Assembly: GCA_035506175.1 (NCBI GenBank)
Contig: DATJPZ010000078.1
Coordinates: 12,283 to 76,282, forward strand
Direction of reading: 5' to 3'
Source: Thermoanaerobaculia bacterium
Lineage (GTDB): Bacteria; Acidobacteriota; Thermoanaerobaculia; UBA5066; Gp7-AA6
Length of the DNA stretch: 64,000 nt
Position numbers and translations under genes: made by a program. Below are positions 271 to 21,462 of this stretch, in pieces. Below the pieces are notes generated by a model. That model was not told where the DNA came from and did no database searches. It saw nothing but the letters and a program-made list of their open reading frames with translations. Numbering within the stretch: position 1 is the first letter of the stretch; each line of letters opens with the position of its first letter.

Positions 271-3039
271 ATGCGTCTGATGCTCCACGCCACGGCCGTC
301 CTTGCCGTCTGCGTCCTCCTGCCGGCGCGTCCGGCCGCCGCCGCCTCGCCGAGCCCGTACCAGGAGACGGGCGCCTCGATCGAGGCGCGCCAGAAAGCGG
401 CCGACGCGGTCCAGGGACCGCGCCTGGCGCCGCCGCGGCTGCTGGCCCCCGGCCGCGCCTCGCGGCGGACTAACGAATCCCCGCGCGGCTCGGCCTGGGT
501 CGAGCGCCCGACGGCGAAGCCGCGGCCCGGCGCGCCCCAGACGCTCGGCGTCGGCTTTCTCGGCGCGCACCTGGCGGACTCGAACGCCTTCCCGCCCGAC
601 ACCTCGGGCGCCGTCGGCCCGACGCAGTTCCTCGTCGGCGTCAACGGCCGGCTGCGCAGCTTCGACAAGACGACCGGCGCGAGCGACGGCGGCCTGAACG
701 CCGACACCGACACCTTCTTCGCCAGCGTCCGCAACGGCCAGCCGACCTTCTCGCCGCGCGTCCGGTACGACCGGACCTCCGGGCGCTGGATCGTCACGGC
801 GCTCAGCTTCGCTCCGTCGCTCGCGAGCAACCGCGTGCTGCTCGCGGTCTCCGGCAGCGGCCTGATCTCGAGCGGCAGCATCTGGACGTTTTTCTATTTC
901 GAGCACGACCTCGACTTCCCGGCCGGCGACACCGGCGACTTCTTCGACGTCGGCTCCCTCGGAGTGGACGCGAACGCCGTCGTCATCGGTGGCAACGTCT
1001 TCGACCAGACCACCGCGTTCGTGGGCACGAGCGTCCACGCCGTGCGCAAGAGCACGCTCCTGACGGGGGCGGGCGGCGACCTGTCGCCGGCCGGCGACGC
1101 GGTCGCGTTCCGCAACCTCACGGGAACTCCGGACGGCGTGGGCCCGTACACGCCGCAGGGCGTCGACAACCTCGCCGAGGCGGCGCCGACGTCGTCGTGG
1201 ATCATCGGCGTCAACAACGTCCTGCCCGTCACGAGCCAGCTCGTCCTGCGCGAACTCACCTACGGCGCGCCGGGCGCGTGGCCGCCGACCGCGCTCTCTG
1301 GAAACAAGATGCTCGACGTCCCGACGACCGCGCTGCCGTTGACGGTGCCGCACCTCGGCAACACGGGCGGCACCGACGGCGAGCTCGATGCCCTCGACGA
1401 CCGGCTCTTCGACGCCAAGTCCCGCGGCGGCCACGTCTGGACCGCGCACAACATCGCCGTGGACGCGACCGGAGCCGGCACCGACGCCGGCGACCGCGAC
1501 GGCGTCCGGTGGTACGAGATCGACGTCACCGGCGTCTCCCCGACGCTCGTCCAGTCGGGGACCCTCTTCGACGACGCGGCCTCGAACCCCCGCTTCTACT
1601 GGATGCCCTCGATCATGGTTTCGGGCCAGGGACACGCGGCGGTCGGCTCGAGCGCCGCCGGAGCGGCCGAGCGCGCCAACGCCGTCGCGGCCGGCCGCCT
1701 CGCCTCGGATCCGCCGGGCACGCTCGCCGCGCCGCTGCTCTTCACCGCGTCGAACACCGCCTACAATCCCGCCGCCGATCCCGGGCCGCCGCGCCGCTGG
1801 GGCGACTACTCGTTCACGAGCCTCGACCCGGACGACATGACGTTCTGGACGATCCAGGAGTACTGCGACGCGACCGACTCCTGGGGCGTGCGCGTCGCGC
1901 AGCTGCTCGCGCCGCCGCCCGCGACCCCGGTCAGCGCCGCGCCCTCGACCGTCGCGTCGGGGCAGGCCTCCGTCTCCGTCGTCGTCAGCGGCGTCTCCAC
2001 GGCCGGCGCCGGCTTCTACGACCCGGGGCCGGGGTACGCGAACCGTCTCACGGCGTCGCTCCCGAACGGCGTCACCGTCAACGGCGTCACGTTCACCGAC
2101 CCGACGACCGTCACGCTCGACCTGAACACCGTCGGCGCGCCGTTCGGCGGCCGGACCGTCACGCTCGTCAACCCCGACGGCCAGTCGCGCACGAGCGCGG
2201 CGCCGATCCTAACCCTGGCGGCCGCCGGCCCCGGCCCGACCGTCACCGCGATCGCCCCCGACTCGGGAGACGCCGCCACGAGTCACGCCGCCGTCCTCAC
2301 GGGCACCGCCTTCGTCGCCGGCGCGTCGGTCAGCGTGGGCGGAATTCCCGCGACGGGCGTGGACGTGACCGACGCGACCTCCGCCCACGTCACGACGCCC
2401 GCCCTCACGCCCGGGACGCTCAACGACGTCACGCTCGTCAACCCGGACACCCAGGGCGCGACCCTCTATGCCGCCTGGTTCGCCGACTTTCTCGACGTGC
2501 CCGACGGCGACCCGTTCCACGACTACGTCGAGCAGATCTTCCGCAACGGGATCACCGCGGGGTGCTCGGGCGGCAACTATTGCCGCAACGACTCCGTCAC
2601 GCGCGCGCAGATGGCCGTGTTCCTGCTGAAGTCCCGCTACGGCTCGACGCACGTACCACCCCCGTGCGCCAGCGTCTTCGACGACGTCGCCTGCCCGTCG
2701 CTCTTCGCCGACTGGATCGAGGAGCTGTACGCCCAGGGCGTGACCGGCGGCTGCAGCGCGAGCCCGCTCCTCTACTGCCCGGACCAGGCCGTGACCCGGG
2801 CGCAGATGGCCGTCTTCCTGCTCAAGGGCTCGCTCGGCTCGAGCTACGCGCCTCCCAACTGCACCGGGCTCGTCTTCGCCGACGTTCCGTGCACGGGCGG
2901 ACCGTTCGATCCGTGGATCGAGGATCTGGCCGACCGAGGAATCACCGGCGGGTGCGGCGGCGGCGACTACTGCCCCGCCTCGCCCGTCACGCGCGGCCAG
3001 ATGGCGGTGTTCCTGACGAAAGCGTTCGGCCTGCCTTAA
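271..3039 (+). CDS. Large secreted surface protein: signal peptide, N-terminal propeller-like region, IPT/TIG-like Ig segments, three C-terminal Cys-rich SLH-like repeats
   Basis: ORF track, 922 aa. N-terminus MRLMLHATAVLAVCVLLPARPAAAA is signal-like, with gggaga upstream of the ATG. RWGDYSFTSLDPDDMTFWTIQEY resembles sialidase-fold propeller proteins (tentative). PTVTAIAPDSG...VTLVNPD looks IPT/TIG-like. The C-terminus has 3 x [GITGGCxxxxYCPxxPVTRxQMAVFL]. Confidence 0.85.
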   Translation: MRLMLHATAVLAVCVLLPARPAAAASPSPYQETGASIEARQKAADAVQGPRLAPPRLLAPGRASRRTNESPRGSAWVERPTAKPRPGAPQTLGVGFLGAHLADSNAFPPDTSGAVGPTQFLVGVNGRLRSFDKTTGASDGGLNADTDTFFASVRNGQPTFSPRVRYDRTSGRWIVTALSFAPSLASNRVLLAVSGSGLISSGSIWTFFYFEHDLDFPAGDTGDFFDVGSLGVDANAVVIGGNVFDQTTAFVGTSVHAVRKSTLLTGAGGDLSPAGDAVAFRNLTGTPDGVGPYTPQGVDNLAEAAPTSSWIIGVNNVLPVTSQLVLRELTYGAPGAWPPTALSGNKMLDVPTTALPLTVPHLGNTGGTDGELDALDDRLFDAKSRGGHVWTAHNIAVDATGAGTDAGDRDGVRWYEIDVTGVSPTLVQSGTLFDDAASNPRFYWMPSIMVSGQGHAAVGSSAAGAAERANAVAAGRLASDPPGTLAAPLLFTASNTAYNPAADPGPPRRWGDYSFTSLDPDDMTFWTIQEYCDATDSWGVRVAQLLAPPPATPVSAAPSTVASGQASVSVVVSGVSTAGAGFYDPGPGYANRLTASLPNGVTVNGVTFTDPTTVTLDLNTVGAPFGGRTVTLVNPDGQSRTSAAPILTLAAAGPGPTVTAIAPDSGDAATSHAAVLTGTAFVAGASVSVGGIPATGVDVTDATSAHVTTPALTPGTLNDVTLVNPDTQGATLYAAWFADFLDVPDGDPFHDYVEQIFRNGITAGCSGGNYCRNDSVTRAQMAVFLLKSRYGSTHVPPPCASVFDDVACPSLFADWIEELYAQGVTGGCSASPLLYCPDQAVTRAQMAVFLLKGSLGSSYAPPNCTGLVFADVPCTGGPFDPWIEDLADRGITGGCGGGDYCPASPVTRGQMAVFLTKAFGLP
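2479..3036 (+). other. Protein-level module: three tandem ~60-aa Cys-rich SLH-like repeats (C-terminus of 271..3039)
   Basis: FADFLDVPDGDPFHDYVEQIFRNGITAGCSGGNYCRNDSVTRAQMAVFLLK / VFDDVACPSLFADWIEELYAQGVTGGCSASPLLYCPDQAVTRAQMAVFLLK / VFADVPCTGGPFDPWIEDLADRGITGGCGGGDYCPASPVTRGQMAVFLTK. 10 conserved Cys. Confidence 0.7.
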
Positions 3040-3046
3040 AGAATTT

Positions 3047-3087
3047 CTCCCGCTCCCCCATCAGGGAGAGAGGGCGGGGTGAGGGGG
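3047..3087. repeat. GC-rich ~40-nt intergenic element, family 1, copy 1 (inverted relative to 7927..7968)
   Basis: ctcccgctcccccatcagggagagagggcggggtgagggg. Its reverse complement aligns with ccccctcaccccgaccctctccccccttcggggggcgaggag at 7927..7968 (about 33 of 40 positions by eye). Lies between convergent genes. Confidence 0.6.
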
Positions 3088-3102
3088 ACTCAGTCCCGAC
3101 GC

Positions 3103-3759
3103 TCAGTATCCCTGGAGCAGCGTCGTCCCCGGCCGCTTGTATTCGCGGCTGGTGCCGTTGCGGCTCTGGATGACGAGGCGCCCGTCCTCGAAGCGGAACG
3201 GGTACTCGCCCGACGGTTGATCCTGCATCGTGACCGTGAGCCTGTCGCCCGCGACCGAGTACCGGCCGCGCAGCGTCACGACGGGGAGACGGTTGTACAT
3301 CTTGTCGTTGGTGAACTCCCGGTAGGACGTCAGCGTCTCGAGAAAGAGGAAGCACCACCGCCCGACGATCGGCGATCCCTCCCGCGGCGCGGCGCCGATG
3401 CGCTCGGACCACGTGTCGCCGCTGTCGTCGTCCGACTTCTCCAGGAATCGCGCGTTTCCCTCGAACTCGACGTGCGTCTCGACCTCCGAGACCTTGCCGG
3501 TCGCCGGGTCCTTCCACGTCGTGATCAGCCGGTCGTCCACGATGCGGTAGTCCGCCTCCGCCATCGAGGCCGAGATCTGAGTGACGCGGCCATCGGGATG
3601 GAACTCCAGGATATTGCCCACGCCCTCGGGCGTGCGCGCGACCGATTCCCACTGGCCGAGGAGCGCGACCGAAGGCGAGGGCGCCGGCGTCGGCGCGGGC
3701 GGCGCGCCGAGCAGCAGGGTAAACGCCGACACGACAAACATCGGAGCCATTCCTTTCAC
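3103..3759 (-). CDS. Secreted/periplasmic hypothetical protein
   Basis: ORF track, 218 aa. N-terminus MKGMAPMFVVSAFTLLLGAPPAPTPAPSP is signal-like. Non-repetitive, normal amino-acid composition. No family recognised. Confidence 0.7.
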   Translation of the reverse strand: MKGMAPMFVVSAFTLLLGAPPAPTPAPSPSVALLGQWESVARTPEGVGNILEFHPDGRVTQISASMAEADYRIVDDRLITTWKDPATGKVSEVETHVEFEGNARFLEKSDDDSGDTWSERIGAAPREGSPIVGRWCFLFLETLTSYREFTNDKMYNRLPVVTLRGRYSVAGDRLTVTMQDQPSGEYPFRFEDGRLVIQSRNGTSREYKRPGTTLLQGY

Positions 3760-3802
3760 CCGAGATTCAGGAGGCGCGAAGATACTCCGACCCGTCCCGG
3801 AA

Positions 3803-3847
3803 TGTCACCGCGAGCGCCGCGGCCCTGACACGCCGTGTCCGGTGACA
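3803..3847. promoter_or_regulatory. Nested inverted repeats in the divergent promoter region between 3759 and 3960
   Basis: tgtcaccg (3803..3810) pairs with cggtgaca (3840..3847). Inner palindrome gacacgccgtgtc at 3827..3839. Function unknown. Confidence 0.25.
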
Positions 3848-3959
3848 GGCGTCACGCCCGCGAAGCCGTTGAGCCTCCTATCCTTCGTCGAGGCCTTCCG
3901 GTGGCCCCGTCCTTGCGAAGAAGTCGGGTCATCGGGAGCCCTGTCTCGATCAGGAGGCC

Positions 3960-5822
3960 ATGATGATCCGGACCATGCGACGCACCGTCCTCTTCGGGTT
4001 CGCGGCCCTGGCCGCCGCCTTCGCGGCGACCGCGGCGACGATCCCGAGCCGAAGCCCCTACCACCCCGCGGCCGCGCCCTCGACCGCGGCGCGCCTCGCG
4101 GCTCCCGGCCAGGAGGGCCTCGACTTCGACGCCACCCTCCTTCCGGCGCTTCGCGACCACGCGACGCGCGTCCTCGAAATGGACGGATTCCCCGTCGCGC
4201 CGGGCGCGACCGGAAAGGTCCGCCTCCATCGGTTCGAAATCGCGACCCCGGGCGCTCAGATGACGATCGAGGGACCCGACGGCGTGACCTCCCGTCCTCT
4301 GCCGGAGATCTCGCATTTCGCCGGCGTCGTCGAAGGCGAGCCCGACTCCTCGGTCTACCTCGCGGCCACGAAGGACGGCGTGGTCGCCTGGGTCCACTCC
4401 CGGCTCGGCCACGCTTACGTTGGTCCGGACGAGTCCGGCCGGTCCTTCGTCGTCCGCGACGGGGACTCCCCGCTGAACGCGGCCGCGAGCACGCAGCCGT
4501 GGGTCTGCCAGGCCGAGAACCTGCCCGCGGCGTTGTCCACGCCGGCGCCGTCGAGCATTCCGGCCCCGCAGCTGCCCGACGTCACGTTCAAGCAGGCGTC
4601 CGTCCGTGTCGAGACCGACTACCAGCTCTACCAGCACTTCGGCGGCGACGCCGACGCGATGTCGACCTACGTGATGACTCTCTTCGGCGCGGTCAACGTG
4701 ATCTACACGCGCGATCTCTCCCTCTATCTCGCCGTCTCGGAGATCCACGTCTGGAGCACGCCGGATCCGTACACGGGCGGTGACACGCTCACGCAGCTCT
4801 ACCAGCTCGGCACCTGGTGGCACGCCAACAAGCCGATCGCCTCGAACCCTCGGACTTACGTCCACTACCTCAGCGGTCACCCGGTCGCGGGCGGCATCGC
4901 GTGGGTCGACGTGCTCTGCTCCGGCGACTTCCAGGCCACCGCCACGCAGTGGGGCGGCGGCTACGGCCTGACTCAGGTCTTCGGCACATATCCGCTCCAG
5001 CTCTGGGACCAGGACGCCTCCGCACACGAGATGGGACACAACGTCGGCTCCGTGCACACGCACTGCTACGCGCCGCCGATCGACCACTGCTACAGCGGAG
5101 AGCAGGGCTGCTACTCCGGCCCGGTCGAGAACCCGGGTCTCGGCAACGGCACGATCATGAGCTACTGCCATCTCCTCGGCTGGCAGTACATGTCGCTCGT
5201 CTTTCACCCCCGCTGCATCTCCGAGCAGATGATGCCCGGCATCAACGGCGCTTCGTGCCTGACCACGCCCGGCATCTTCGCGGACGTCCTGCCCTCGGAC
5301 CCGTTCCTCTCCTACATCGACACCGTCTACAACGACGGCATCACGGGCGGCTGCGGCACCGATCCCCTCATCTACTGCCCGACCTCTCCCGTCACGCGGG
5401 CCCAGATGGCCGTGTTTCTCCTGAAGGCGATTCACGGCTCGTCCTACGCGCCGCCGGCCTGCGCCGGACTCTTCACCGACGTGCCGTGCTCGAACGGGTT
5501 CGCCCCGTGGATCGAGGAGCTCGCCGCGGAGGGCGTCACGGCCGGGTGCGGCACCGGCACCTACTGCCCGAACGACCCCGTGACGCGCCAGCAGATGGCG
5601 GCCTTCCTCCTGAAGGCCGAGCACGGCTCGTCCTACACGCCGCCGGCCTGCGCGGCCAACCCCTTCGCGGACGTCGCGTGCCCCGGTACTTTCACGAACT
5701 GGATCCAGCAGCTCGTCGCCGAGGCCGTCACGGGCGGCTGCGGCGGCGGCGACTACTGCCCCACGAGCCCGGTCACGCGGGGCCAGATGGCCGTGTTTCT
5801 CGTCAAGACGTTCGGGCTGTAA
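3960..5822 (+). CDS. Secreted metzincin-type zinc metalloprotease (reprolysin-like) with three C-terminal Cys-rich SLH-like repeats
   Basis: ORF track, 620 aa. aggagg RBS directly upstream. Signal peptide MMIRTMRRTVLFGFAALAAAFAATAA. HEMGHNVGSVH (HExxHxxGxxH) followed by GTIMSYC (Met-turn-like). The C-terminal triple repeat is homologous to that of 271..3039. Confidence 0.85.
   Translation: MMIRTMRRTVLFGFAALAAAFAATAATIPSRSPYHPAAAPSTAARLAAPGQEGLDFDATLLPALRDHATRVLEMDGFPVAPGATGKVRLHRFEIATPGAQMTIEGPDGVTSRPLPEISHFAGVVEGEPDSSVYLAATKDGVVAWVHSRLGHAYVGPDESGRSFVVRDGDSPLNAAASTQPWVCQAENLPAALSTPAPSSIPAPQLPDVTFKQASVRVETDYQLYQHFGGDADAMSTYVMTLFGAVNVIYTRDLSLYLAVSEIHVWSTPDPYTGGDTLTQLYQLGTWWHANKPIASNPRTYVHYLSGHPVAGGIAWVDVLCSGDFQATATQWGGGYGLTQVFGTYPLQLWDQDASAHEMGHNVGSVHTHCYAPPIDHCYSGEQGCYSGPVENPGLGNGTIMSYCHLLGWQYMSLVFHPRCISEQMMPGINGASCLTTPGIFADVLPSDPFLSYIDTVYNDGITGGCGTDPLIYCPTSPVTRAQMAVFLLKAIHGSSYAPPACAGLFTDVPCSNGFAPWIEELAAEGVTAGCGTGTYCPNDPVTRQQMAAFLLKAEHGSSYTPPACAANPFADVACPGTFTNWIQQLVAEAVTGGCGGGDYCPTSPVTRGQMAVFLVKTFGL
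5277..5819 (+). other. Protein-level module: three tandem Cys-rich SLH-like repeats (C-terminus of 3960..5822)
   Basis: FADVLPSDPFLSYIDTVYNDGITGGCGTDPLIYCPTSPVTRAQMAVFLLK / LFTDVPCSNGFAPWIEELAAEGVTAGCGTGTYCPNDPVTRQQMAAFLLK / PFADVACPGTFTNWIQQLVAEAVTGGCGGGDYCPTSPVTRGQMAVFLVK. Confidence 0.7.
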
Positions 5823-5841
5823 GGGGTAAATTAGCCCGCGC

Positions 5842-6507
5842 ATGCGGGCTCTGGTTCTCGAGGACGACGACCGGCTGCGGTCGCTCGTCGTCCGCACGCT
5901 CGGCCGCGGCGGCCTCGCCTGCGACGAGTCGAGAAAGATCGAGGAGGCCGAGGAGCTGCTCGAGCTCCACGAGTACGACCTGCTCGTCCTCGACCGCCGG
6001 CTCCCGGACGGCGACGGCCTCGACGTCTGCCGCCGCGCGCGGGCGCGGGGCTTTCGCCGCTCGATCCTGATGCTGACCGCGATGGACCAGGCCGAGGACG
6101 AGATCGAGGGCCTCTCGCAGGGCGCCGACGACTATCTCGGCAAGCCCTTCGACCTCGAGGTGCTCGCCGCCCGGGCGCGCGCCCTTTTGCGGCGCAACGA
6201 AACGCGGGCGCCGAAAGAGCTGGTCCTCGGCGACCTGAGGCTCGATCCGGGACGCCGGGCGGCGTGGCGCGGCGCCGAGCCGCTCAAGCTGACCTCCCGC
6301 GAGTTCACGATCCTCGAGCTCCTGATGCAGACGCCGGGCGCCGTCGTCTCGCGCGAGGAGATCCTCGAGCAGGCGTGGGGCGAGCGCGAGGAGCCGATGT
6401 CGAACACGATCGACGTTCTCGTCGGCCGCCTGCGCCGCAAGCTCGACCGGCCGAAGCAGCCCTCGCGCATCGAGACGGTCCGCGGCAGCGGCTACCGGTT
6501 GAAGTGA
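5842..6507 (+). CDS. OmpR-family response regulator (receiver + winged-helix DNA-binding domain)
   Basis: ORF track, 221 aa. Receiver motifs: MRALVLEDDDRL...DLLVLDRRLPDGDGL...LMLTA...DDYLGKPF. C-terminal LTSREFTILELL...VRGSGYRL. Confidence 0.93.
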   Translation: MRALVLEDDDRLRSLVVRTLGRGGLACDESRKIEEAEELLELHEYDLLVLDRRLPDGDGLDVCRRARARGFRRSILMLTAMDQAEDEIEGLSQGADDYLGKPFDLEVLAARARALLRRNETRAPKELVLGDLRLDPGRRAAWRGAEPLKLTSREFTILELLMQTPGAVVSREEILEQAWGEREEPMSNTIDVLVGRLRRKLDRPKQPSRIETVRGSGYRLK

Positions 6508-7913
6508 AGTTCCTCTCGCTCGAGCGCGCCCGCACCCGCCTGGCGCTGGCCGGGGCGCTCGTGACCGTTCTCTTCCTCGCCGCGCTCGCCGTCGGCGCGC
6601 GCACGTTGATCCGCAAGCTCGCCTTCGAGGAAATCGACGGCGAGCTCGACACGCTCGCGATCGCCATCGGCTCCGACTACGAGCTCGTCGGCCTGTCCGA
6701 GGAGGAACGCCAGGCGCTGAAAGCCGGCCTCGAGGCGAACATGTTCGAGTTCCGTCTCGCCAACCACTCGGCGATCCTCTTCAACGGGGACGTGCCGGTG
6801 GCCCTGACCGGCGACCTGCTGCGGACGCACGAGCGCGTCGTCCTCGACCCGTACCGCGACCGCCCGGAGATTCCGTACACGGCGATCGAGCCCTACAGCG
6901 GCCAGCACCGGACCTGCCGCTTTCTGGTGACACACCTCCAGGGCAAGGCCAAGGGCGCCACGCTCGTCGTCTTCCGGTGGATCGGTCCGACGATGCGCTC
7001 GTTGTCCCGCGTGGACACCGCGCTTTCGGGGATGGTCGTCTTCGGCTTCCTCGGGACGGCCGTCATCCTCGCCCTCGTCGTGCGCCGCGCGATCCGCCCG
7101 GTCGAGGAAGTCACGCGCCTGGCCGAGGAGGCCGAGGCGACGGACCTCTCGCGCCGCGTCCAGATCTCCGGCGGCGAAGAATTCCGGCGCCTGGCGGCCG
7201 TCATCAACTCCCTCTTCGACCGTCTCGAGAGGGCTTTCCGCGCGCAGCGGCGCCTCGTCGCCGATGCCGCCCACGAGCTGAAGACGCCGACGGCCGTGCT
7301 CGTCGGCGAGGCGCAGGACGCGCTCCGCCCGGACGCGACGGACGCCGAGCGCCGCCGCTCGCTCCAGACGATCGCCGACGCGTCGAAGGGGCTCGCCCGC
7401 GAGGTGGACGGCCTGCTGCTCCTCGCCCGCGGCGACGCGGCTCCGCCGCGCCGCATCGAGGACCTCGACCTCTACGAGATCGCCGAAGACGCGGTCTCCA
7501 CCGCCGCCGCCCTCGGCGCCCGGCGGCGCGTCGTCTGCGCGCTTTCGAAGAGCGGCGACACGCGCCTGCGCGGCGAGCGGGGAGGGCTCATGCGCCTCGT
7601 GTCGAACCTCGTCTCGAACGCCGTGATCTACACCGGGGCGGACACGATGGTCGAAGTGCGCGTGGCCGGCGAAAAGGACCGCGTGTTCATCGACGTCGCC
7701 GACCGCGGGCCGGGCGTGGCGCGCGAGGACCGGGAGCGGATCTTCGAGCGGTTCGTGCGCCTGGACGAGACCCGCGCGAAGAACCCGCAGGGTTCGGGCC
7801 TGGGCCTGGCGATCGTCGACCAGGTCGTCGCCGCCCACGGCGGTTCCGTCGAGGTCCGCGAGCACGACGGCGGCGGCGCCGTTTTTCGCGTGTCGCTGCC
7901 GAGGACTGCCTGA
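6504..7913 (+). CDS. Sensor histidine kinase (two TM segments, HAMP, HisKA, HATPase_c)
   Basis: In-frame GTG at 6504 overlaps the regulator stop (GTGA). VKFLSLERARTRLALAGALVTVLFLAA is TM1. H-box ADAAHELKTPTA. N/G boxes SNLVSNAVIYT, DRGPGV, GSGLGLAIV. The ORF-track start at 6264 is rejected because it overlaps the regulator. Confidence 0.88.
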   Translation: MKFLSLERARTRLALAGALVTVLFLAALAVGARTLIRKLAFEEIDGELDTLAIAIGSDYELVGLSEEERQALKAGLEANMFEFRLANHSAILFNGDVPVALTGDLLRTHERVVLDPYRDRPEIPYTAIEPYSGQHRTCRFLVTHLQGKAKGATLVVFRWIGPTMRSLSRVDTALSGMVVFGFLGTAVILALVVRRAIRPVEEVTRLAEEAEATDLSRRVQISGGEEFRRLAAVINSLFDRLERAFRAQRRLVADAAHELKTPTAVLVGEAQDALRPDATDAERRRSLQTIADASKGLAREVDGLLLLARGDAAPPRRIEDLDLYEIAEDAVSTAAALGARRRVVCALSKSGDTRLRGERGGLMRLVSNLVSNAVIYTGADTMVEVRVAGEKDRVFIDVADRGPGVAREDRERIFERFVRLDETRAKNPQGSGLGLAIVDQVVAAHGGSVEVREHDGGGAVFRVSLPRTA

Positions 7914-7926
7914 GGCGGGAGAGAGC

Positions 7927-7968
7927 CCCCCTCACCCCGACCCTCTCCCCCCTTCGGGGGGCGAGGAG
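7927..7968. repeat. GC-rich ~40-nt intergenic element, family 1, copy 2
   Basis: ccccctcaccccgaccctctccccccttcggggggcgaggag, with a short CCCCCC-ttc-GGGGGG hairpin. Lies between the convergent kinase gene and the sulfatase-fold gene. Confidence 0.6.
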
Positions 7969-8101
7969 GCATGCCTGTCGTCGCGCCTTGCTCGTTCCGT
8001 GGTTCGCGGCACGCGGAGTCTCCCGAAGGAACCGGGGGAGGAGCCGCGCGCCGGTGCGTGCCGCGTTGGCACGCAGCCCCCCGAGCGAGCGGAGGCGACG
8101 G

Positions 8102-9562
8102 TTAGTGCAGATACCCGAGCGCCCGGAGCTCCTTGACCACGTCGCTCTGCTCGCCGAGGCCGTAGTGGCCCATGACCTGCTTCATCCACGTCTCGTAGGT
8201 CGGGGCGTGGTCCGGCCCCGGCGCGAGCCAGCCCGACGGGCCGCCGAGGTGTTTCATCAGCGTGTGGTAGAGCGTGCGGACGCGGTCCGGGTCATTCCCG
8301 GCGAGGTTTGATGTCTCGCCCGGGTCCTTCGCGAGATCGTAGAGCATCCGTTCCTGCGGCGTGACGAGGATGAACTTGCGGTCGCCCTCGACCACGCTCC
8401 CGATCCAGAACGTCCAGGCGCCCTCGCTGTAAGCGGGGCGTGGCGGTTCGGACGCGGCTTCGGGAAGGCCGAGCACCGCCGGCGCGAGGCTCCGGCCGCT
8501 CCAGGCCCGCGGGCGCTCGACGCCGACGAGATCGAGCAGTGTCGGCGCCACGTCGAGGTTCTGCACGAGTTGGGACTCGGCTCGCCCGGGCCTGCCGAGG
8601 CCAGGCGCGGCGATCACGAGCGGCGTGCGGACGACGCCGTCGAAGTAGGTCTGTCCGTGGCTGATCACGCCGTGCTCGTCGAACTCCTCGCCGTGATCGG
8701 CGTTGAAGACCACGATCGTCCTCTGCGCCAGCCCCGTCCGGTCGAGGTACGCGAAGAGCGGCTCGAGATCCTGGTCGGCCCAGTACAGCCCCTCGTCGTA
8801 CATCGCCATCGCGTTGGCGACGTCGTCCGGCGTCGGGTGGAGCGAGCCCGCGCGGACGCGCTCGATCGCGTCCAGCGTGAACTCGAAGGAGCTCGCGAAT
8901 TTTCCGAAGCGGTTCGTCCGCTCGTGGGCGTGGAGGAACGGGTAGTGCGTGTCGGTCGCGTAGAGGAACACGAAGAAACGGCCGCTCCGGTTCTTCTCGA
9001 TCCAGTCGAGGACGTGCGGCATCTTCTGGGACAGCGACTCCTGCGCGTGGCGGAAGAGGTCCCAGCCCTGGTCGAACCCGAAGGGCCCGGAGATCCAGCT
9101 CTGCACGAAGGCGGCGGTCTTGTAGCCGGCGCCGCGCAGCGCCTCCGAGACGAGTTCGTCCTGCGGCGAGGGTCCCGGCGCGATGCCGAGGATCTTCGAG
9201 GCGTCCTTCTCGTCGCGCTGCTCGTGGACGGCGAGCTCGGCCACGTAGCGCGAGGTCAACATCGACGCGTAAGACGGCAGGGTGTACGGCGCCTGCGCGA
9301 CGGAGCGCGGGAAGCGGACGCCGCGCGCGGCCAGCGCATCGAGGTGAGGCGTCGTCTTTCGCGCGTAGCCGTCGAAGGAGCAGTGGTCGGCGCGCACGGA
9401 GTCGAACGAGATCCAGATCACGTTCATGCCGCGACAGGCGTCGGCGGGATCCCTGCGGCACGCGGCCGACAGGAGACCCGCGAGCCCGAGGGCGGCGGCC
9501 GCGGCCGCGCGGGCGAGGCGGCGCGCGGCGGGAGCAGCTGCGGTTTTCGGTCTCGCGGGCAT
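8102..9562 (-). CDS. Sulfatase-fold (alkaline-phosphatase superfamily) lipoprotein with Thr at the nucleophile position
   Basis: Last 486 codons of the 8102..13435 ORF, starting at ATG 9562. MPARPKTAAAPAARRLARAAAAAALGLAGLLSAAC is lipobox-like. NVIWISFDSVRADH is the metal site. QAPYTLPSYASMLTSRY stands where sulfatases have C/S-x-P-x-R. ADHGEEFDEHG lies near the C-terminal half. Confidence 0.85.
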   Translation of the reverse strand: MPARPKTAAAPAARRLARAAAAAALGLAGLLSAACRRDPADACRGMNVIWISFDSVRADHCSFDGYARKTTPHLDALAARGVRFPRSVAQAPYTLPSYASMLTSRYVAELAVHEQRDEKDASKILGIAPGPSPQDELVSEALRGAGYKTAAFVQSWISGPFGFDQGWDLFRHAQESLSQKMPHVLDWIEKNRSGRFFVFLYATDTHYPFLHAHERTNRFGKFASSFEFTLDAIERVRAGSLHPTPDDVANAMAMYDEGLYWADQDLEPLFAYLDRTGLAQRTIVVFNADHGEEFDEHGVISHGQTYFDGVVRTPLVIAAPGLGRPGRAESQLVQNLDVAPTLLDLVGVERPRAWSGRSLAPAVLGLPEAASEPPRPAYSEGAWTFWIGSVVEGDRKFILVTPQERMLYDLAKDPGETSNLAGNDPDRVRTLYHTLMKHLGGPSGWLAPGPDHAPTYETWMKQVMGHYGLGEQSDVVKELRALGYLH

Positions 9563-9637
9563 CGCGTCCGAAGCATACCCGCGGGCCGCGGCGGCGCGGG
9601 TTGTCCCCCGGCCGCCCCTCTGAGAGACTGGCCGGCG

Positions 9638-12600
9638 ATGGAGCGCGCGGTTTTCGTCACCGGCTACTACGGTTTCGGCAACACCGGCGACGAGGCGATC
9701 CTCTCCGCGCTCGCCGCGGGCCTGCGCGCTCGCGACGCCTCGATCCGCATCCTCGCGACCTCGGGAGATCCGGGCCTGACTCGCCAGAAGCACGGGGTCG
9801 AAGCGGTCCCCTGGCGCGACCCGCTGTCGCTCGCGGAGGCGGTCAAGCGCGTCGACCTCGTCGTCATCGGCGGCGGCGGTCTCTTCCAGGACTACGGCGG
9901 CCTCGAGCCCGGGACGCTGCTGACCCCGAAGCACGGCGGCGTCACGTTCTACGCCGGGCCGGCCGTGCTCGCCGCCGCCGCCCGCAAGCCCGTCGCTCTC
10001 CATGCCCTCGGGCTCGGCCCGCTCGCCTCGCCGGAGGCGCGCCGCATCGTGCGCGCCGTCGCGGCCGACGCGGTTCGCGTCTCGCTGCGCGACGCCGGCT
10101 CGCGCGCGCTCCTCCGGGAGATCGGGGCCCCCGCCGAGAACGCCGCCGTCACGGCCGATCCCGCGTTCCTGCTCTCCTCCGGGCACGTCCGGCCCGAGGA
10201 CGTCCTGATCGGCATGGGCCTGGAGCCGCGGTCGCCGATCGTGGGCGTCGCGTTGCGGCCGTGGGCGCGCGGCGCGGACCCGGCGCGGTGGGAGGCCGCG
10301 GTCGCCGCGGCCCTCGACCGGATCGTCGAGCGCACCGGCGGCACCCTGCTCTTCGTTCCCTTCGAGCGCAGTCCGTGGTCCGACGACGACGACTTCGCCG
10401 TGGCCACCCGCGTGCGCCGCCGCCTCGCGCACGGCGACCGCGCCGCGATCCTCTCGGGGCTCCTCGCGCCGCAGGACACGGCGTCGCTTCTCGGCGGCTG
10501 CGACCTGGTTCTCGCGATGCGCTTCCACGCCGCCGTCTTCGCGCTCGCCGCGGCGGTACCGCCCGTGGCCCTCGCGTACGACCCCAAGGTGGACGCCCTT
10601 CTGGCCGGCACCGGTTTCGCCGATCTCGTCCTGCCGCTCTCCGGTCTCGATGCCGGCGACCTCGCGGCGCGGCTCGAGCGGGCTTACGCCGACCGCGAGC
10701 GGCTCTCGAAGAAAATCGCGGGCGCCGCCGCCGAGCAGCGCCGTCTTGCCGCCGGGGATCTCGACGCGCTCGCGGCGCTCGCCGCCGACCCGCCGGAGGC
10801 GCCGCCGGTTTCGCCCGAGATGCTGGCGCTTCTCGACGAAGGGCTTGCCGCGAACCTCCAGCGCACGCACGAGCTGTCGGCCGAAGTCGACATGCTCCGC
10901 GCGGACAAGATCGCGCAGGATCTGCGCGTCGGCGACCTCGAGGCGCGGTTGGCAGCGGCCGAAGGCGCCGAGGCTCCCCTGCGCGCGAGCCACGATGCCC
11001 TGCTGACCCGCTTCGAGGAAGCGGTCCAGGCGCACCGCCGCGAAATCGAGCTCCTCGAAGGTCAGCGCGTCGAAGCCCGCGAGGAGCTCTATCGCATCCA
11101 GACGTCGCGGCTGTGGCGCACCGTGAACCTCTACTGGCGGGCGCGGCGCGCGGCCGCGCGGCTGACCCGGCCGGCGAGGCGCCGCATCCAGGGCGTTCTC
11201 GGATCGCCGCCGGCCGACTGGGTCGGACCGGACACGGCGCGTGCCGAAGCCGCGGCGGCGCGGCGGCCGGAGGCCGACAACCGCTGCGAGATCGTTTTGC
11301 TCCCCTTCTCCGCCGGGACGGCCGAGGAGGCCCGGCGGCTGGCGGCCGCGGGTCATCGCGTGTTCGCGGTCGACCCGAGCCTGCGGGCGAGCGGCCCGCC
11401 CTACGCGGCGCTCGAGGGCCCCCCGCGGCTGTTCACCGTGACTCTCCGCGCGCCCGATCCGGCGTCGGCCGAGACGTTCGACGCCCTCGACCGCCTGCGC
11501 CGGGAGCTCTCCCTGTGCGCGACGCTCGCCGTCGCCGACGATCCGGCGTGGAGGCCCGTCGCGGCGCGCCTGGCCACCGAGCGCGGGTGGGCCCTTACCG
11601 AGACGCTCGGCGACGAGGCCGCGATCGCCCGCGCGTTCCCGAAGCTTTCGGTCGTCGTCGTCACGTGGAACGGCCTCGACTTCAACCGGCTCTGCCTCGA
11701 CAGCCTCTCGGCGCGTACCGAGTGGCCGAACCTCGAGATCGTGGTCGTCGACAACGCCTCGACCGACGGTACACGGGAGCTCCTCCAGGAGTGCATCCGG
11801 AAGGATCCCCGGATCCGGGCGATCCTCCTGCCCGAGAACCGCGGCTTCGCGGCCGCCTGCAACGAGGGCCTGGCCGCCTCGACGGGCGACTTTCTCGTGA
11901 TCTTGAACAACGACACGGTGGTCACGCGCGGCTGGGCCTCGGCGCTGTGCCGGCACCTCGCGGCCGACCCGAAGCTCGGCCTCGTGGGACCCGTCACCAA
12001 CGCCATCGCCAACGCGGCGAAGGTCGAGGCCGGCTACGCGTCGGTCGACGCCCTCGGCGCGTGGGCCGCGGAATGGGCGCGTGCCCACGACCGCGAGGCC
12101 TTCGACATCCCGGTGCTCGCCCTCTTCTGCACCGCGCTGCCCCGCCGCGTCTGGGAGGAGATCGGGCCGCTCGACGAACGCTTCGGGATCGGCCTCTTCG
12201 AGGACGACGACTACAGCCGGCGCGTGCGCGCGAAAGGCTACGCCGTTCGCTGCGCGCGGGATGCCTTCGTCCATCACTGGCAGATGGCCTCGTTCCGGAA
12301 GCTGTCGCGCGAGGCCTACTTCGCGCTCTACGCCGAGAACAAGCGCCGCTTCGAAGAGAAGTGGAGCGCCGCGCCGGCGGCGACCGCCGCGCGGCCGAGC
12401 GCGGCTCCCCCGGCGCGCCGCTTCGCGACGCTCGACGAGCACCGCGCCCAGCTCTCGCACGTGCGCGAGCGCGCCGCCGGCAGCAAGGGGGTGGTCGTCT
12501 TCCTGCCGTCGGTCGGCTGGGGGATCCACCTCTTCCAGCGTCCGCACCACCTGGCCCGCGTCTTCGCGCGCCTGGGCCATGTCGCCATCTTCGACAGCAG

Positions 12601-13510
12601 CAACGCCGCCGACCGCGTCGACGGGTTTCGCGAGATCGAACCGAACCTCTTTCTCTTCAGCGGCTCTCCGGAGCTGCTGCACGAGATCCCGTCGCCGCTC
12701 CTGTGGACCTTCCCCTACAACTTCCACCTCGCCGACGGGTACCCGAAGCCGTCGCGGACCGTCTACGACTGGATCGACGACCTGTCCGTTTTTCCCCAGG
12801 AGCGCGCTCTCCTCGAGCGCAACCACGCGCGGGCCCTCGTCGAGGCGACGCTCGTCGCGAGCGTGGCGCGCCGCCTTCACGAGCAGGCCCGCGCCGTCCG
12901 CAAGGACGCGCTGTACCTGCCCAACGGCGTCGAATACGAACGCTTCGCCGCGCCCGCCGCGCCGCCGCGCGACGAGAAGCTGCTGTCGTTCCTGACGCCG
13001 GGTGCGCCGGTCGCCGGGTACTACGGGGCGCTCGCCGAGTGGTTCGATTACCCGCTCGTGGACGCCGTCGCCGCCGCCAAACCCGACTGGCGCTTCGTCC
13101 TCATCGGCCCGCAGTACGACAAGAGCCTGCCGGGTCAGCCGATGCTCGAACGGAAGAACGTCCTCTGGCTCGGCCCGCGCGACTACGTCACGCTGCCCGG
13201 GTACCTCGCGCTCTTCGACGTCGCGACCATTCCGTTCCGCATCAACGCGATCACGCAGGCGACCTCGCCCTTGAAGCTTTACGAGTACTTCGCCGGCGCG
13301 CGGCCGGTCGTCACGACGCCGATGTCCGAGTGCCAGGCGCACCCCGAGGTCCGGATCGCCGCGACGGCCGGCGAGTTCGCAGCGGCCCTCGACGAGGCGC
13401 GGGCGCAGGGCCGCGATCCGGACTTCCGCGCGCACCTGCGCTCGGTTGCGCGGGAAAACTCGTGGTCGGCGCGGGTGATGACGGTGCTGCGCGCCCTCGA
13501 CGGCCGCTAG
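9638..13510 (+). CDS. 1290-aa fusion enzyme: CsaB-like polysaccharide pyruvyltransferase + coiled coil + family-2 glycosyltransferase + family-1 (TuaH-like) glycosyltransferase
   Basis: In-frame ATG at 9638 inside ORF 8570..13510. MERAVFVTGYYGFGNTGDEAILSAL...VVIGGGGLFQDYGG is pyruvyltransferase-like (about 9638..10750). Heptad-rich segment about 10760..11130. LSVVVVTWNGLDF...VVVDNASTDGT...ILLPENRGFAAACNEG...LFEDDDYSRR is GT2-like (about 11640..12300). YYGALAEWFDYPL...ATSPLKLYEYFAGARPVVTTP is GT1-like (about 12480..13500). Confidence 0.85.
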   Translation: MERAVFVTGYYGFGNTGDEAILSALAAGLRARDASIRILATSGDPGLTRQKHGVEAVPWRDPLSLAEAVKRVDLVVIGGGGLFQDYGGLEPGTLLTPKHGGVTFYAGPAVLAAAARKPVALHALGLGPLASPEARRIVRAVAADAVRVSLRDAGSRALLREIGAPAENAAVTADPAFLLSSGHVRPEDVLIGMGLEPRSPIVGVALRPWARGADPARWEAAVAAALDRIVERTGGTLLFVPFERSPWSDDDDFAVATRVRRRLAHGDRAAILSGLLAPQDTASLLGGCDLVLAMRFHAAVFALAAAVPPVALAYDPKVDALLAGTGFADLVLPLSGLDAGDLAARLERAYADRERLSKKIAGAAAEQRRLAAGDLDALAALAADPPEAPPVSPEMLALLDEGLAANLQRTHELSAEVDMLRADKIAQDLRVGDLEARLAAAEGAEAPLRASHDALLTRFEEAVQAHRREIELLEGQRVEAREELYRIQTSRLWRTVNLYWRARRAAARLTRPARRRIQGVLGSPPADWVGPDTARAEAAAARRPEADNRCEIVLLPFSAGTAEEARRLAAAGHRVFAVDPSLRASGPPYAALEGPPRLFTVTLRAPDPASAETFDALDRLRRELSLCATLAVADDPAWRPVAARLATERGWALTETLGDEAAIARAFPKLSVVVVTWNGLDFNRLCLDSLSARTEWPNLEIVVVDNASTDGTRELLQECIRKDPRIRAILLPENRGFAAACNEGLAASTGDFLVILNNDTVVTRGWASALCRHLAADPKLGLVGPVTNAIANAAKVEAGYASVDALGAWAAEWARAHDREAFDIPVLALFCTALPRRVWEEIGPLDERFGIGLFEDDDYSRRVRAKGYAVRCARDAFVHHWQMASFRKLSREAYFALYAENKRRFEEKWSAAPAATAARPSAAPPARRFATLDEHRAQLSHVRERAAGSKGVVVFLPSVGWGIHLFQRPHHLARVFARLGHVAIFDSSNAADRVDGFREIEPNLFLFSGSPELLHEIPSPLLWTFPYNFHLADGYPKPSRTVYDWIDDLSVFPQERALLERNHARALVEATLVASVARRLHEQARAVRKDALYLPNGVEYERFAAPAAPPRDEKLLSFLTPGAPVAGYYGALAEWFDYPLVDAVAAAKPDWRFVLIGPQYDKSLPGQPMLERKNVLWLGPRDYVTLPGYLALFDVATIPFRINAITQATSPLKLYEYFAGARPVVTTPMSECQAHPEVRIAATAGEFAAALDEARAQGRDPDFRAHLRSVARENSWSARVMTVLRALDGR

Positions 13511-13516
13511 CGGGTC

Positions 13517-15136
13517 TCAGCGCGCCGGCGAAATCTCGACGAGCCGAATCGCCGGTGCGCCCGACCGGTCGCGAAAGACCGTTTCGCGCGCGGCCGCGGC
13601 CGGCGCCTGCGCCAGCGCGTCGCGGAAGGCGCGCACGGACGCCGACGGCGGCTGGTTGTCCCACTCGAGAAACGCGCCGCCCTCGCCGATTTCGTCGCCC
13701 CAGGTTCGGCCTCGCGCCGAGCGCTCGGCCGTCGCTCCCCAGAAGAGCTCCGTCCCGTGAATCCGGCCGCCCGAGACGACGTAGAACGGGTTCTGAAAGC
13801 CCCAGTCGAGGAGCTTCAATTTCGCCGGCGGAATTGACCGCTCTTCGAGCGCGCGCGCGGCGTCGAAGGAAGCGCTCGACCAGAATCCCCGCCCGCCGGT
13901 CTCTCGCAGGCCTCGGTCGATGCGCGCGTCCCACGAAAGCCACACGGCGGCGAGCGCGGCGCCGGCCCCGGCCGCCAGAGCGCGCGCGGCCGGGGATCGC
14001 GGCCACGCCTCGGCGGCGAGAATCGAGAGGGCCGCGAGGCCCGGAGGAAGGACCGCCGCCATGTGATGCTGCCCGACCGGCAGCCGGGAGAAAGCCAGGA
14101 TCCCGGAAAGGAGAAGCGCCGTCCACGCGAGCGCCCGGCGCACCGACACGAGGCGCGCGTCGCCGCCGCGCCCCGGGAGGAACGCCCCGGCGCACGCGGC
14201 CGCAAGAAGCGCTCCGCCGAGCGCGACCTCCCACGCGCGCGTGCCCGGCCCGCCCCAGATCGGGCGGAGCTGCCTCGAGGAGATCATCAGCTCGGCCAGC
14301 AGCGACAGGCGCGCGCGGGCCCCGACCGACGCCGCCGGGAGCCGGCCGAGCGTCTCCATCACCGTCAGCGTCCCGCCGTGCGAGGCCGCCTCGTAGACCA
14401 GCAGCGGCAGGGCGCCGAGGAGACCACCCGCGGCCGCGGCGGCAAGCTCTCGCGCCGCCGGCCGCGCGCGCCGGCCGTAGACGATCGCGGCGGCCAACGC
14501 CGCCGCCGCGAGGAGCCAGACGAAGTTCACCCGCGCCCAGACGCCGAGACCCGCGGCGACCCCCAGGAGAGACGCGGACCGCGGGGACCGCCGCCGAAGG
14601 AATCGGGCGAGGGCGAACGCGAGGAGGCCCATCGCGGCCATCCAGACCGACGTTCCGCCATGGTCGAAAACGGTCAGGTCGAGATACCCGGGCTGAATCG
14701 CCAGGGCAAGGCCGGTGACGAGAGCGGCCGCGGGGCTCGCTTCCTCTGCCAGGAGCCGAACGAATCCCGCGATCCCGAGCGCGCCGAGAAGCGCGCCGCT
14801 CGACCGGGCAACCGCGGCGCCCGTCCCGAGGGCGGCAAAGAGCGGCAACGCGACCCACGCCTTGAACGCTCCGACGTAAGGGAAAACCATGATCGGCCAG
14901 CGGCGCCCGCCGGCGGCGAGAAAAAAGGCCGGGTCGTGCGCAAACGGCGGGTCGCCGCGTCCATCCGCGAGAACGTAGACGGCCGACTCGACGTAGAGCG
15001 CCTCGTCCATCTGGTAGCCGATACCCGCCGAGATCCGGCGCGCGGCGAACAGGCCGTAGACCACGAGCGGCAGAACGACGACGGCGGCCCCGCGGGGGCC
15101 GCGCGCACGCGGTCCGGTCTTCCCGGACGCCTTCAC
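13517..15136 (-). CDS. Polytopic GT-C-type membrane glycosyltransferase-like protein (ArnT/PMT family-like) with C-terminal soluble domain
   Basis: In-frame GTG at 15136, 11 nt downstream of the stop of the preceding gene (15147). Many hydrophobic helices. GIGYQMDEALYVES in the first loop resembles the DE motif of PMT/ArnT-type enzymes. The ORF-track start at 15337 is rejected because it overlaps the upstream gene. Confidence 0.75.
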   Translation of the reverse strand: MKASGKTGPRARGPRGAAVVVLPLVVYGLFAARRISAGIGYQMDEALYVESAVYVLADGRGDPPFAHDPAFFLAAGGRRWPIMVFPYVGAFKAWVALPLFAALGTGAAVARSSGALLGALGIAGFVRLLAEEASPAAALVTGLALAIQPGYLDLTVFDHGGTSVWMAAMGLLAFALARFLRRRSPRSASLLGVAAGLGVWARVNFVWLLAAAALAAAIVYGRRARPAARELAAAAAGGLLGALPLLVYEAASHGGTLTVMETLGRLPAASVGARARLSLLAELMISSRQLRPIWGGPGTRAWEVALGGALLAAACAGAFLPGRGGDARLVSVRRALAWTALLLSGILAFSRLPVGQHHMAAVLPPGLAALSILAAEAWPRSPAARALAAGAGAALAAVWLSWDARIDRGLRETGGRGFWSSASFDAARALEERSIPPAKLKLLDWGFQNPFYVVSGGRIHGTELFWGATAERSARGRTWGDEIGEGGAFLEWDNQPPSASVRAFRDALAQAPAAAARETVFRDRSGAPAIRLVEISPAR

Positions 15137-15146
15137 GAGAGACAGT

Positions 15147-21410: not shown

Positions 21411-21462
21411 GCGCGCATTCCTGCGCCCGAAGCCTACAGGACCGCGCGGGGGCGGGCGCGTG

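Follow-up and report, generated by a model that had tools for sequence, protein, structure and literature searches.

Cysteine-rich SLH trimers beside a CsaB fusion enzyme: a candidate pyruvylated-glycan anchoring system in a Thermoanaerobaculia chromosome

We describe a locus in a 64-kb stretch of DNA from a soil acidobacterium of the class Thermoanaerobaculia (contig DATJPZ010000078.1 of GenBank assembly GCA_035506175.1; this entire stretch is hereafter 'the window'). Two of its genes encode exported proteins that end in a trimer of surface-layer homology (SLH) repeats, and a third encodes a fusion of a CsaB-type pyruvyltransferase with a helical spacer and a pair of glycosyltransferases (GTs). 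It is very probable that the fusion enzyme makes a pyruvylated glycan to which the SLH trimers bind; as to where this takes place in the Thermoanaerobaculia envelope, we lean towards a wall-linked, periplasmic anchoring system. In our reading, an anchoring principle that is already known appears here in a variant form and in an unexpected lineage. The features that carry the argument are listed here by window position (HMM, hidden Markov model):

271–3039, plus strand: cargo gene 1 (P0001, 922 aa; translation; Pfam TIG and SLH)
2479–3036, plus strand: Cys-rich SLH trimer of cargo 1, residues 737–922, 11 Cys, up to the stop codon (Pfam SLH per repeat, AlphaFold, Foldseek, trimer HMM)
3960–5822, plus strand: cargo gene 2 (P0002, 620 aa; translation; Pfam Reprolysin_5 and SLH)
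5274–5819, plus strand: Cys-rich SLH trimer of cargo 2, residues 439–620, 10 Cys (Pfam per repeat, trimer HMM)
9638–13510, plus strand: pyruvyltransferase–glycosyltransferase fusion, 1290 aa (translation, Pfam, NCBIfam, AlphaFold)
9638–10693, plus strand: CsaB-type pyruvyltransferase domain of the fusion, residues 1–352 (PF04230, TIGR03609, AlphaFold pLDDT >90)
10694–11200, plus strand: helical spacer of the fusion (AlphaFold model of residues 1–691)
11639–12310, plus strand: GT2 domain (GT-A fold), residues ~668–891 (Pfam Glycos_transf_2, 5.5e-27; Glyco_tranf_2_3)
12839–13471, plus strand: GT4-like domain (Glyco_trans_1_4/TuaH-like), residues ~1068–1278 (Pfam, 4.1e-08; NCBIfam TuaH, 5.4e-23)

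Two exported proteins share a cysteine-rich SLH trimer

Both cargo proteins carry an N-terminal Sec-type signal peptide, and the only part that they have in common is the C-terminal ~185 residues, which in each case comprises exactly three SLH repeats and reaches the stop codon. A preliminary description of this DNA, made from its letters alone, had proposed two otherwise unrelated secreted proteins with three terminal SLH repeats, and this is borne out. Whole-protein Pfam scans place both proteins above the gathering score of 20.8 for SLH (PF00395; PROSITE PS51272), with 41.3 bits (1.5e-10) for cargo 1 and 44.4 bits (1.7e-11) for cargo 2; taken one at a time, 6/6 repeats have SLH as their best family (13.9–28.8 bits), and two of the six exceed the gathering score. 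The two trimers are 59% identical to each other, and score 304.6 and 302.2 bits on our own trimer HMM.

The fold is equally instructive. An AlphaFold model of the trimer, prepared with 32 homologues, has a predicted local distance difference test score (pLDDT) of 92.9 and a predicted template-modelling score (pTM) of 0.87, with two helices per repeat. When this model was compared with the PDB by Foldseek, the top 15 matches were all Sap or SpaA SLH trimers and the next match had E>3, so that solved SLH trimers are the only structures it resembles. The template-modelling scores were 0.62–0.77 when normalised to the query and 0.72–0.84 when normalised to the target (0.77/0.84 for 3PYW), and several of these 15 entries contain 4,6-pyruvylated N-acetylmannosamine (4,6-Pyr-ManNAc) ligands. 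A sequence search of the PDB with phmmer likewise returned Sap SLH domains as best matches, with the Arg of the TRAE motif aligned.

In SpaA and Sap, the ligand is contacted by SLH-Trp13, SLH-Gly29 (in the motif GIIxG) and SLH-Arg43 (in TRAE) (PMC6081394). Equivalents of this triad (Y/W, G[IV]TxG and TR[AG]Q) are found in all three repeats, and R50/R115/R180, G36/G99/G166 and W87/W154 of the trimer are invariant among 12–32 homologues.

A distinguishing feature of these trimers is their cysteine content. The canonical cysteine-free loop, G-x-x-D-G-x-F-x-P, is replaced in every repeat by GC-x(3-6)-YCP, and a second Cys pair (PPxC...DVxC) lies between repeats, bringing the total to 10–11 Cys per trimer (4+4+2–3). 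The loop replacement is a variant feature, and no ground for exclusion from the SLH family. The loop pair alone (6 Cys) is common to Anaerolineae, Holophagales and Bryobacterales; the extra PPxC...DVxC pair is the mark of the Thermoanaerobaculia form, and the SLH repeats of Acidimicrobiia are cysteine-free.

The trimer is also widespread. Within one length band, the matches exceed 7,600 clusters at 90% identity, and 3,381 clusters at 50% identity match it at E<=1e-30 (of 1.84 billion representatives); the match is almost always C-terminal, and in almost all family members examined the trimer ends 0–8 residues from the stop codon. Its cargo types include metalloproteases, subtilases, beta-helix, TIG, Ig and PKD domains, GSDH and multihaem cytochromes; no beta-barrel partner was found among the 150 best family members.

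Cargo 1 consists of a ~620-aa N-terminal region, an IPT/TIG domain (residues 656–727) and the C-terminal trimer; Pfam, NCBIfam and PDB sequence searches gave no relative for its N-terminal 620 residues. Cargo 2 contains a reprolysin/M12B-like zinc metalloprotease domain (residues ~210–412; Pfam Reprolysin_5, 2.7e-18) with the motif HEMGHNVGSVH. That both proteins are instead true S-layer subunits that form a lattice is suggested by Firmicutes, in which SLH trimers anchor S-layer proteins and csaB adjoins S-layer genes; we find this hard to credit, however, given that cargo 2 is a metalloprotease with an intact HExxH, that the same trimer occurs on thousands of unrelated enzyme and adhesin architectures, and that nothing in them suggests a lattice domain.

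A CsaB-type pyruvyltransferase shares one polypeptide with a helical spacer and two glycosyltransferases

The window has ~70% G+C, and because of this long spurious open reading frames (ORFs) are abundant; third-position GC was used to choose the real frames among them. The preliminary description had assigned the CsaB-like gene to the ORF at 8570–13510. The gene and its CsaB domain are real; the start was wrong. Translation begins at the ATG at 9638, and the protein starts with MERAVFVTGYYGFGN: third-position GC marks 8102–9562 as coding on the minus strand, and the resulting 1290 aa equal the length of database homologues. The segment 8570–9637 (plus strand) of the longer ORF mirrors, in antisense, the sulfatase-fold gene of the minus strand described below, a typical high-GC artefact that is misleading for ORF-based annotation. 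The nearest homologues of the fusion protein are at most 89% identical and bear the NCBI names Thermoanaerobaculia or Acidobacteriota; loci with the same housekeeping neighbours come from such metagenome-assembled genomes (MAGs).

The domains follow one another in the order CsaB-type pyruvyltransferase, helical spacer, small alpha/beta domain (residues 551–655, confidently modelled), GT2 and GT4-like; the last two, recognised by both Pfam and NCBIfam (GT2 and GT1_4/TuaH-like), are the two glycosyltransferase domains that the preliminary description had announced. The first domain matches PF04230 with an E-value of 6.4e-35 (121.9 bits; cut-off 25.3) and TIGR03609, the CsaB model, with 202.0 bits over profile positions 2–290 of 301 (equivalog cut-off 213.1). 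An assignment to the exopolysaccharide-type enzymes WcaK/EpsO is ruled out, since WcaK models score 38–44.5 bits as against 202 bits for CsaB; the earlier CsaB-like call therefore stands.

Critical residues for binding of phosphoenolpyruvate (PEP) and acceptor in Paenibacillus alvei CsaB are Y14, F16, R148, R207, R306, H308 and K328 (PMC10435577). Their counterparts here, Y11, F13, R151, R207, R295, H297 and K317, vary little or not at all in alignments of 12 and 40 sequences, and are spaced as in the P. alvei enzyme (Y-x-F; R-x-H; 20 residues from H to K). We matched them by motif and spacing, not by alignment, because searches of PDB sequences offered nothing beyond a marginal hit: the CsaB domain itself gave no match, and a 12-sequence profile gave only yeast Pvg1p (5AX7, E 0.91).

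An AlphaFold model of residues 1–691 (pLDDT 85.8) comprises a GT-B-like CsaB domain followed by helices at 353–383, 393–488 and 491–521. The middle helix of this spacer runs unbroken for 96 residues and would extend ~14 nm if straight; each flanking helix has 31 residues. Foldseek comparison of the model returned generic GT-B enzymes (UDP-GlcNAc 2-epimerases and GT4s) and is informative on fold only. Neither a signal peptide nor a membrane segment was found in the fusion enzyme, which is therefore cytoplasmic.

SLH genes lie upstream of CsaB genes in several lineages

In the window, the only two matches to the SLH-trimer HMM in 64 kb are the cargo genes, 3.8 and 6.6 kb upstream of the CsaB gene. 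We asked how general this arrangement is by taking the 80 closest CsaB loci, by CsaB-domain profile, from ~185,000 named species genomes: 42 from Thermoanaerobaculia or unclassified Acidobacteriota, 14 from Bryobacterales/Terriglobia, 14 from Anaerolineae, seven from Acidimicrobiia, two from Holophagales and one from Pirellulales. The trimer HMM was scanned over all six frames of these loci, 25 of which are syntenic with the window and 55 non-syntenic, and the downstream flank served as internal background.

SLH genes stand upstream of CsaB in 22/25 syntenic loci. Among the 55 non-syntenic loci, they are upstream in 25 and downstream in two; counted as ORF segments, this amounts to 47 upstream versus two downstream, in 391 and 400 kb scanned, respectively. 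A one-sided sign test on the non-syntenic loci, computed by hand, gives ~3e-6 with relatedness ignored. Relatedness inflates this significance, yet clades that stand apart in the CsaB tree show the arrangement again, with cargo sets and orientations that differ, and the non-syntenic loci with SLH genes include a second Thermoanaerobaculia clade, Holophagales and Anaerolineae. The adjacency of SLH and CsaB genes is non-random, and the co-occurrence of repeat and pyruvyltransferase envisaged in the preliminary description holds at the level of the locus.

These data also bear on an explanation in which there is no functional link: the fusion enzyme would make an unrelated exopolysaccharide or O-antigen, the adjacency would be inherited gene order, and the trimers would bind, for example, plain or polyamine-modified peptidoglycan. 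There is precedent for such binding, in that the SLH domain of OmpM from Negativicutes recognises cadaverinated peptidoglycan and not a pyruvylated polymer (preprint 10.1101/2021.05.31.446380), and the loop beside the groove is remodelled in our trimers. Moreover, the whole neighbourhood is syntenic in relatives. Adjacency within the window's own clade is weak proof, because neighbouring housekeeping genes (ATP synthase, amidohydrolase) are conserved too, and it may represent inherited synteny near the replication origin. Bryobacterales/Terriglobia form an exception, with SLH genes nearby in only 2/14 CsaB loci. We nevertheless judge the absence of any link to be improbable: the adjacency recurs non-syntenically, with other cargo sets and in other phyla (25 loci upstream versus two downstream), the Arg/Gly/aromatic triad is invariant in three repeats, and the pyruvyltransferase domain scores as CsaB, not WcaK.

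Three individual loci merit comment. In a bin labelled Anaerolineales (L057, 1009–8961), three SLH-cargo genes score 223–245 bits on the Thermoanaerobaculia trimer model, versus 83–116 in other Anaerolineae, which points to recent transfer or mis-binning; these trimers have the six loop cysteines only. In a long-read metagenome contig (L001, 1876–5883), the cargo and two-component orthologues lie in pieces in several reading frames; the probable cause is indel errors of the assembly, and not decay. On a Pirellulales (Planctomycetota) contig (L044, 1–816), an SLH-like ORF immediately precedes a related CsaB gene; this is another possible case from Gracilicutes, in the PVC (Planctomycetota–Verrucomicrobiota–Chlamydiota) group.

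A second CsaB lineage is linked to a UDP-GlcNAc 2-epimerase

In a tree of CsaB domains from the 80 loci, the window's fusion clade (26 rows, support 100/100) is sister to Holophagales. Thermoanaerobaculia have a second lineage, a clade of ~900-aa CsaB–GT4 proteins that groups with sequences from Anaerolineae and Acidimicrobiia. No isolate was found in both lineages among these loci, whose MAGs are incomplete, and the two may be alternatives to each other.

UDP-GlcNAc 2-epimerase supplies ManNAc, the sugar that is pyruvylated by CsaB in Firmicutes. In 10/12 loci of this sister Thermoanaerobaculia clade with CsaB–GT4 proteins, the gene just before CsaB encodes this enzyme (PF02350, E ~1e-110), as would be expected for Pyr-ManNAc chemistry; this lends indirect support to a predicted 4,6-ketal pyruvylation of beta-D-ManNAc on a lipid-linked precursor. 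Loci of this second type (L004/L073, 10001–12835 and 19830–22652; L059, L080, L086 and L087) contain, in this order, mnaA, CsaB–GT4 (~900–940 aa) and a GT4 gene, with two to four SLH-cargo genes arrayed upstream; genes for a DegT aminotransferase, GNAT and NTP_transf_5 are present as well, and two CsaB–GT4 copies stand 7 kb apart on one contig. Elsewhere, ABC2_membrane and ABC_tran genes adjoin related CsaB genes (L003 and L088), an arrangement not seen in the window.

A model for anchoring, and where it may operate

We hypothesize the following sequence of events. The two C-terminal GT modules of the fusion would assemble a repeat-unit glycan on a lipid carrier, and the N-terminal CsaB domain would add ketal-pyruvate to it, probably as a terminal cap, while being held ~14 nm off by the spacer in a terminator–ruler–polymerase arrangement like that of WbbB and WbdD. 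The polymer would then be exported and attached within the envelope, most probably to peptidoglycan, following every characterised SLH system. The reprolysin-like metalloprotease and the TIG-domain protein, exported by the Sec route, would be held there non-covalently through their C-terminal SLH pseudo-trimers: the Arg of TR[AG]Q, the Gly of G[IV]TxG and the Trp/Tyr in all three grooves are predicted to bind the pyruvylated sugar, and the extra cysteines probably form disulfides that stabilise the trimer in an oxidising periplasm. A terminal cap would have a parallel in SpaA, which is reported to bind its polymer via the terminal residue (PMC8942822).

We favour wall-linked retention because every characterised SLH ligand is reported to be a peptidoglycan-linked polymer or modified peptidoglycan, because SLH domains are periplasmic in characterised diderms (preprint 10.1101/2021.05.31.446380), because both cargo proteins have a Sec signal only, with no recognisable outer-membrane sorting signal, and because enzymes of typically periplasmic type (GSDH, multihaem cytochromes) are also in the cargo family. 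On the other hand, the same chemistry could serve another place. The pyruvate-capped glycan might be a polymer of the outer-membrane surface (O-antigen-like or capsular, and dependent on an ABC transporter), with the SLH proteins passing through the outer membrane (by type II secretion, for instance) to be displayed on the cell surface bound to that glycan, much as S-layer proteins bind lipopolysaccharide (LPS) in Caulobacter, but via SLH. Coiled-coil terminator proteins are a hallmark of ABC-transporter-dependent glycan assembly, an architecture of terminator, coiled coil and two GTs is known from the synthesis of LPS O-antigen, and terminal pyruvate occurs on the Klebsiella O1 antigen (PMC11231755). 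Many cargo domains are of extracellular type (metalloprotease, subtilases, TIG, PKD, beta-helix), and no LCP-type ligase was seen in any locus context examined. Against surface display stand the very facts that led us to prefer the wall, and the absence of a WaaL-type ligase near the loci. We regard it as the less likely location, although one to be taken seriously.

Retention at the wall by SLH trimers and a pyruvylated glycan remains our preferred reading, and several points weigh against it in addition to the synteny and the Bryobacterales exception considered above. The TIGR03609 score is 11 bits under the curated equivalog cut-off. The Cys-bracketed loop lies next to the binding groove, and its sequence suggests that specificity may differ from that of known trimers. 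The protease and TIG cargo are extracellular in type and suit surface display at least as well. The preliminary description had pictured a self-contained module, and this does not hold: the window locus has no UDP-GlcNAc 2-epimerase for supply of UDP-ManNAc, no initiating transferase, no exporter and no ligase, there are no csaA-, tagO- or tagA-type genes in it, and no transporter is encoded within 10 kb of the fusion gene. Finally, the evidence is computational throughout; it is from domain identities, fold, residue conservation and gene adjacency that we infer the pyruvylation chemistry, the terminal-cap and ruler role, the disulfides, the site of glycan attachment and the location of the cargo.

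Neighbouring genes

The other genes in and beside the locus are these:

3103–3750, minus strand: exported 215-aa protein between the two cargo genes, conserved, without a Pfam family (Pfam; synteny)
5842–6507, plus strand: OmpR-type response regulator (Pfam Response_reg and Trans_reg_C; synteny)
6504–7913, plus strand: HAMP/HisKA histidine kinase, overlapping the stop codon of the regulator gene (Pfam; synteny)
8102–9562, minus strand: sulfatase-fold (alkaline-phosphatase superfamily) enzyme, exported, divergent from the CsaB fusion (Pfam Sulfatase, PF00884, 6.9e-40)
13517–15337, minus strand: GT-C-like membrane protein (Pfam scan)

The two-component pair and the 215-aa protein are specific to the syntenic clade, and the latter is encoded at the same position in most syntenic loci, at 49–80% identity. 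The OmpR-type regulator may control the locus.

In the sulfatase-fold protein, T-L-P-S-Y takes the place of the C/S-x-P-x-R formylglycine motif and is invariant in 18 orthologues. A Thr nucleophile is that of LtaS/EptA-type phosphotransferases and of phosphodiesterases; because of the replacement, the protein appears from its sequence to be phosphotransferase- or phosphodiesterase-like. Its LLSAAC motif suggests that it is possibly a lipoprotein. The preliminary description of a phosphotransferase-like enzyme of sulfatase fold is thus sound as to fold and likely type of activity, and not as to membership of the module: the gene is on the minus strand, none of the non-syntenic loci has it, and even within the syntenic clade several loci lack it. 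We have downgraded it, on account of this patchy presence, from core part to optional partner. The GT-C gene is ruled out as a part of the module, having homologues in only 2/25 syntenic loci. It and a similar gene (19638–21494, minus strand), both PMT_2/GT-C membrane glycosyltransferase-like, bracket three tandem paralogues (15147–19539, minus strand) for secreted, tail-fibre-like proteins of ~487–490 aa with a C-terminal Peptidase_S74 intramolecular-chaperone domain.

Further along the window (28287–49807) is a replication-origin neighbourhood: an ATP synthase operon, bactofilin, parB, parA, rsmG, mnmG, mnmE, an R3H-domain gene, yidC, dnaA, dnaN, gyrB and gyrA. The SLH/CsaB locus is ~27–40 kb from dnaA, and the nearness of this region goes some way to account for its strong synteny. 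Also in the window are genes for a YidC that has a periplasmic domain and for a protein with PD40/TolB-like repeats (both by Pfam), in agreement with the preliminary description, and these fit a diderm host. An Omp85 barrel, which had been cited there as a further diderm mark, was not recovered: Pfam scans gave no match to the Omp85/BamA family in any sizeable ORF of the window. The PD40-repeat protein may have been the source of that call; it has 993 aa (56619–59600, minus strand), of which the N-terminal part matches Peptidase_MA_2 weakly, the middle contains the PD40/TolB-like repeats and the last ~427 aa are without a Pfam family.

Significance

A survey of outer-membrane tethering found SLH/CsaB to be practically absent from Gracilicutes, with 0/14 acidobacterial genomes positive and Thermoanaerobaculia not sampled; in the same survey, Acidobacteria carry OmpA, Pal and LolA. 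According to a review of pyruvyltransferases, CsaB-like enzymes belong chiefly to Firmicutes and Cyanobacteria. We searched the literature for SLH or CsaB in Acidobacteria and in Thermoanaerobaculia and found no relevant paper, in keeping with the earlier impression that such a module had not been described for genomes of this kind; automated annotation of these MAGs already supplies the names 'S-layer homology domain-containing' and 'CsaB'. The structural novelties, as judged from the models, are an SLH trimer of predicted disulfide type, and the union of CsaB, a ruler-like spacer and a polymerase in one protein.

SLH/CsaB, held to be a Terrabacteria trait, is here present, expanded and clustered across an acidobacterial class, with thousands of matching cargo architectures. 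We tentatively suggest a broader picture, for which the case is still short of persuasive, in which Thermoanaerobaculia, and probably other Acidobacteriota, use SLH/pyruvyl-glycan binding as a general means of retaining dozens of exported enzymes: a peptidoglycan-linked polymer akin to secondary cell-wall polymers would lie in the Gram-negative periplasm and would be both built and capped with pyruvate at a set length by a single CsaB–ruler–polymerase polypeptide, and the system as a whole would be shared with Chloroflexota by horizontal transfer. If this is true, the divide between Terrabacteria and Gracilicutes in the use of SLH/CsaB is not strict, and questions arise as to the place of such proteins in a diderm envelope, wall-linked secondary polymers in Gracilicutes, and inheritance or transfer. 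In practical terms, the trimer is a compact, predictable sorting tag for annotating the secretomes of abundant uncultured soil bacteria, and the fusion might allow defined glycans with a pyruvate cap to be synthesised by one enzyme.

Comparison with known systems

The closest parallels are the SLH/CsaB systems of Firmicutes (Sap/EA1 with csaAB in Bacillus anthracis; SpaA/SlhA with csaB in P. alvei). Shared with these are three SLH repeats in a pseudo-trimer, the conserved Trp/Gly/Arg triad and a gene for a CsaB-type, PEP-dependent pyruvyltransferase beside the cargo; linkage of a 2-epimerase gene to csaB is seen in the sister clade. The differences are that the host here is diderm (Gracilicutes, Acidobacteriota), and that the trimer is C-terminal, has 10–11 Cys and lacks the DG-F-P loop. 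Furthermore, the CsaB of Firmicutes is a stand-alone enzyme of ~370 aa, whereas the one described here forms a single protein with the helical spacer and the two glycosyltransferases.

The OmpM/SlpA tethers of Negativicutes, Deinococcus-Thermus and Cyanobacteria resemble our system in combining SLH in a diderm with a CsaB-dependent pyruvylated wall polymer. In contrast to the C-terminal triple SLH on soluble enzymes that we describe, each of those proteins begins with a single SLH domain, continues as a coiled coil and ends in a porin barrel, and their role is to tether the outer membrane.

Anaerolineae (Chloroflexota), the hosts of which are generally held to be monoderm, have SLH trimers with the loop-cysteine pair (GC-x(4-7)-[YF]CP, 6 Cys per trimer), likewise encoded upstream of a related CsaB gene; the second, inter-repeat Cys pair is absent from them and is a Thermoanaerobaculia addition.

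For the fusion enzyme, the nearest likeness is to WbbB of Klebsiella pneumoniae O12 and to WbdD/WbdA, with an N-terminal terminating module, a long helical spacer and two C-terminal GT modules in one polypeptide. The domains themselves differ (PS_pyruv_trans, GT2 and GT4-like here; GT99, GT102 and GT103 in WbbB), and the terminating group here would be ketal-pyruvate. By this analogy, the fusion enzyme may work like WbbB without being a member of its family, its ruler role being predicted from the helix model.

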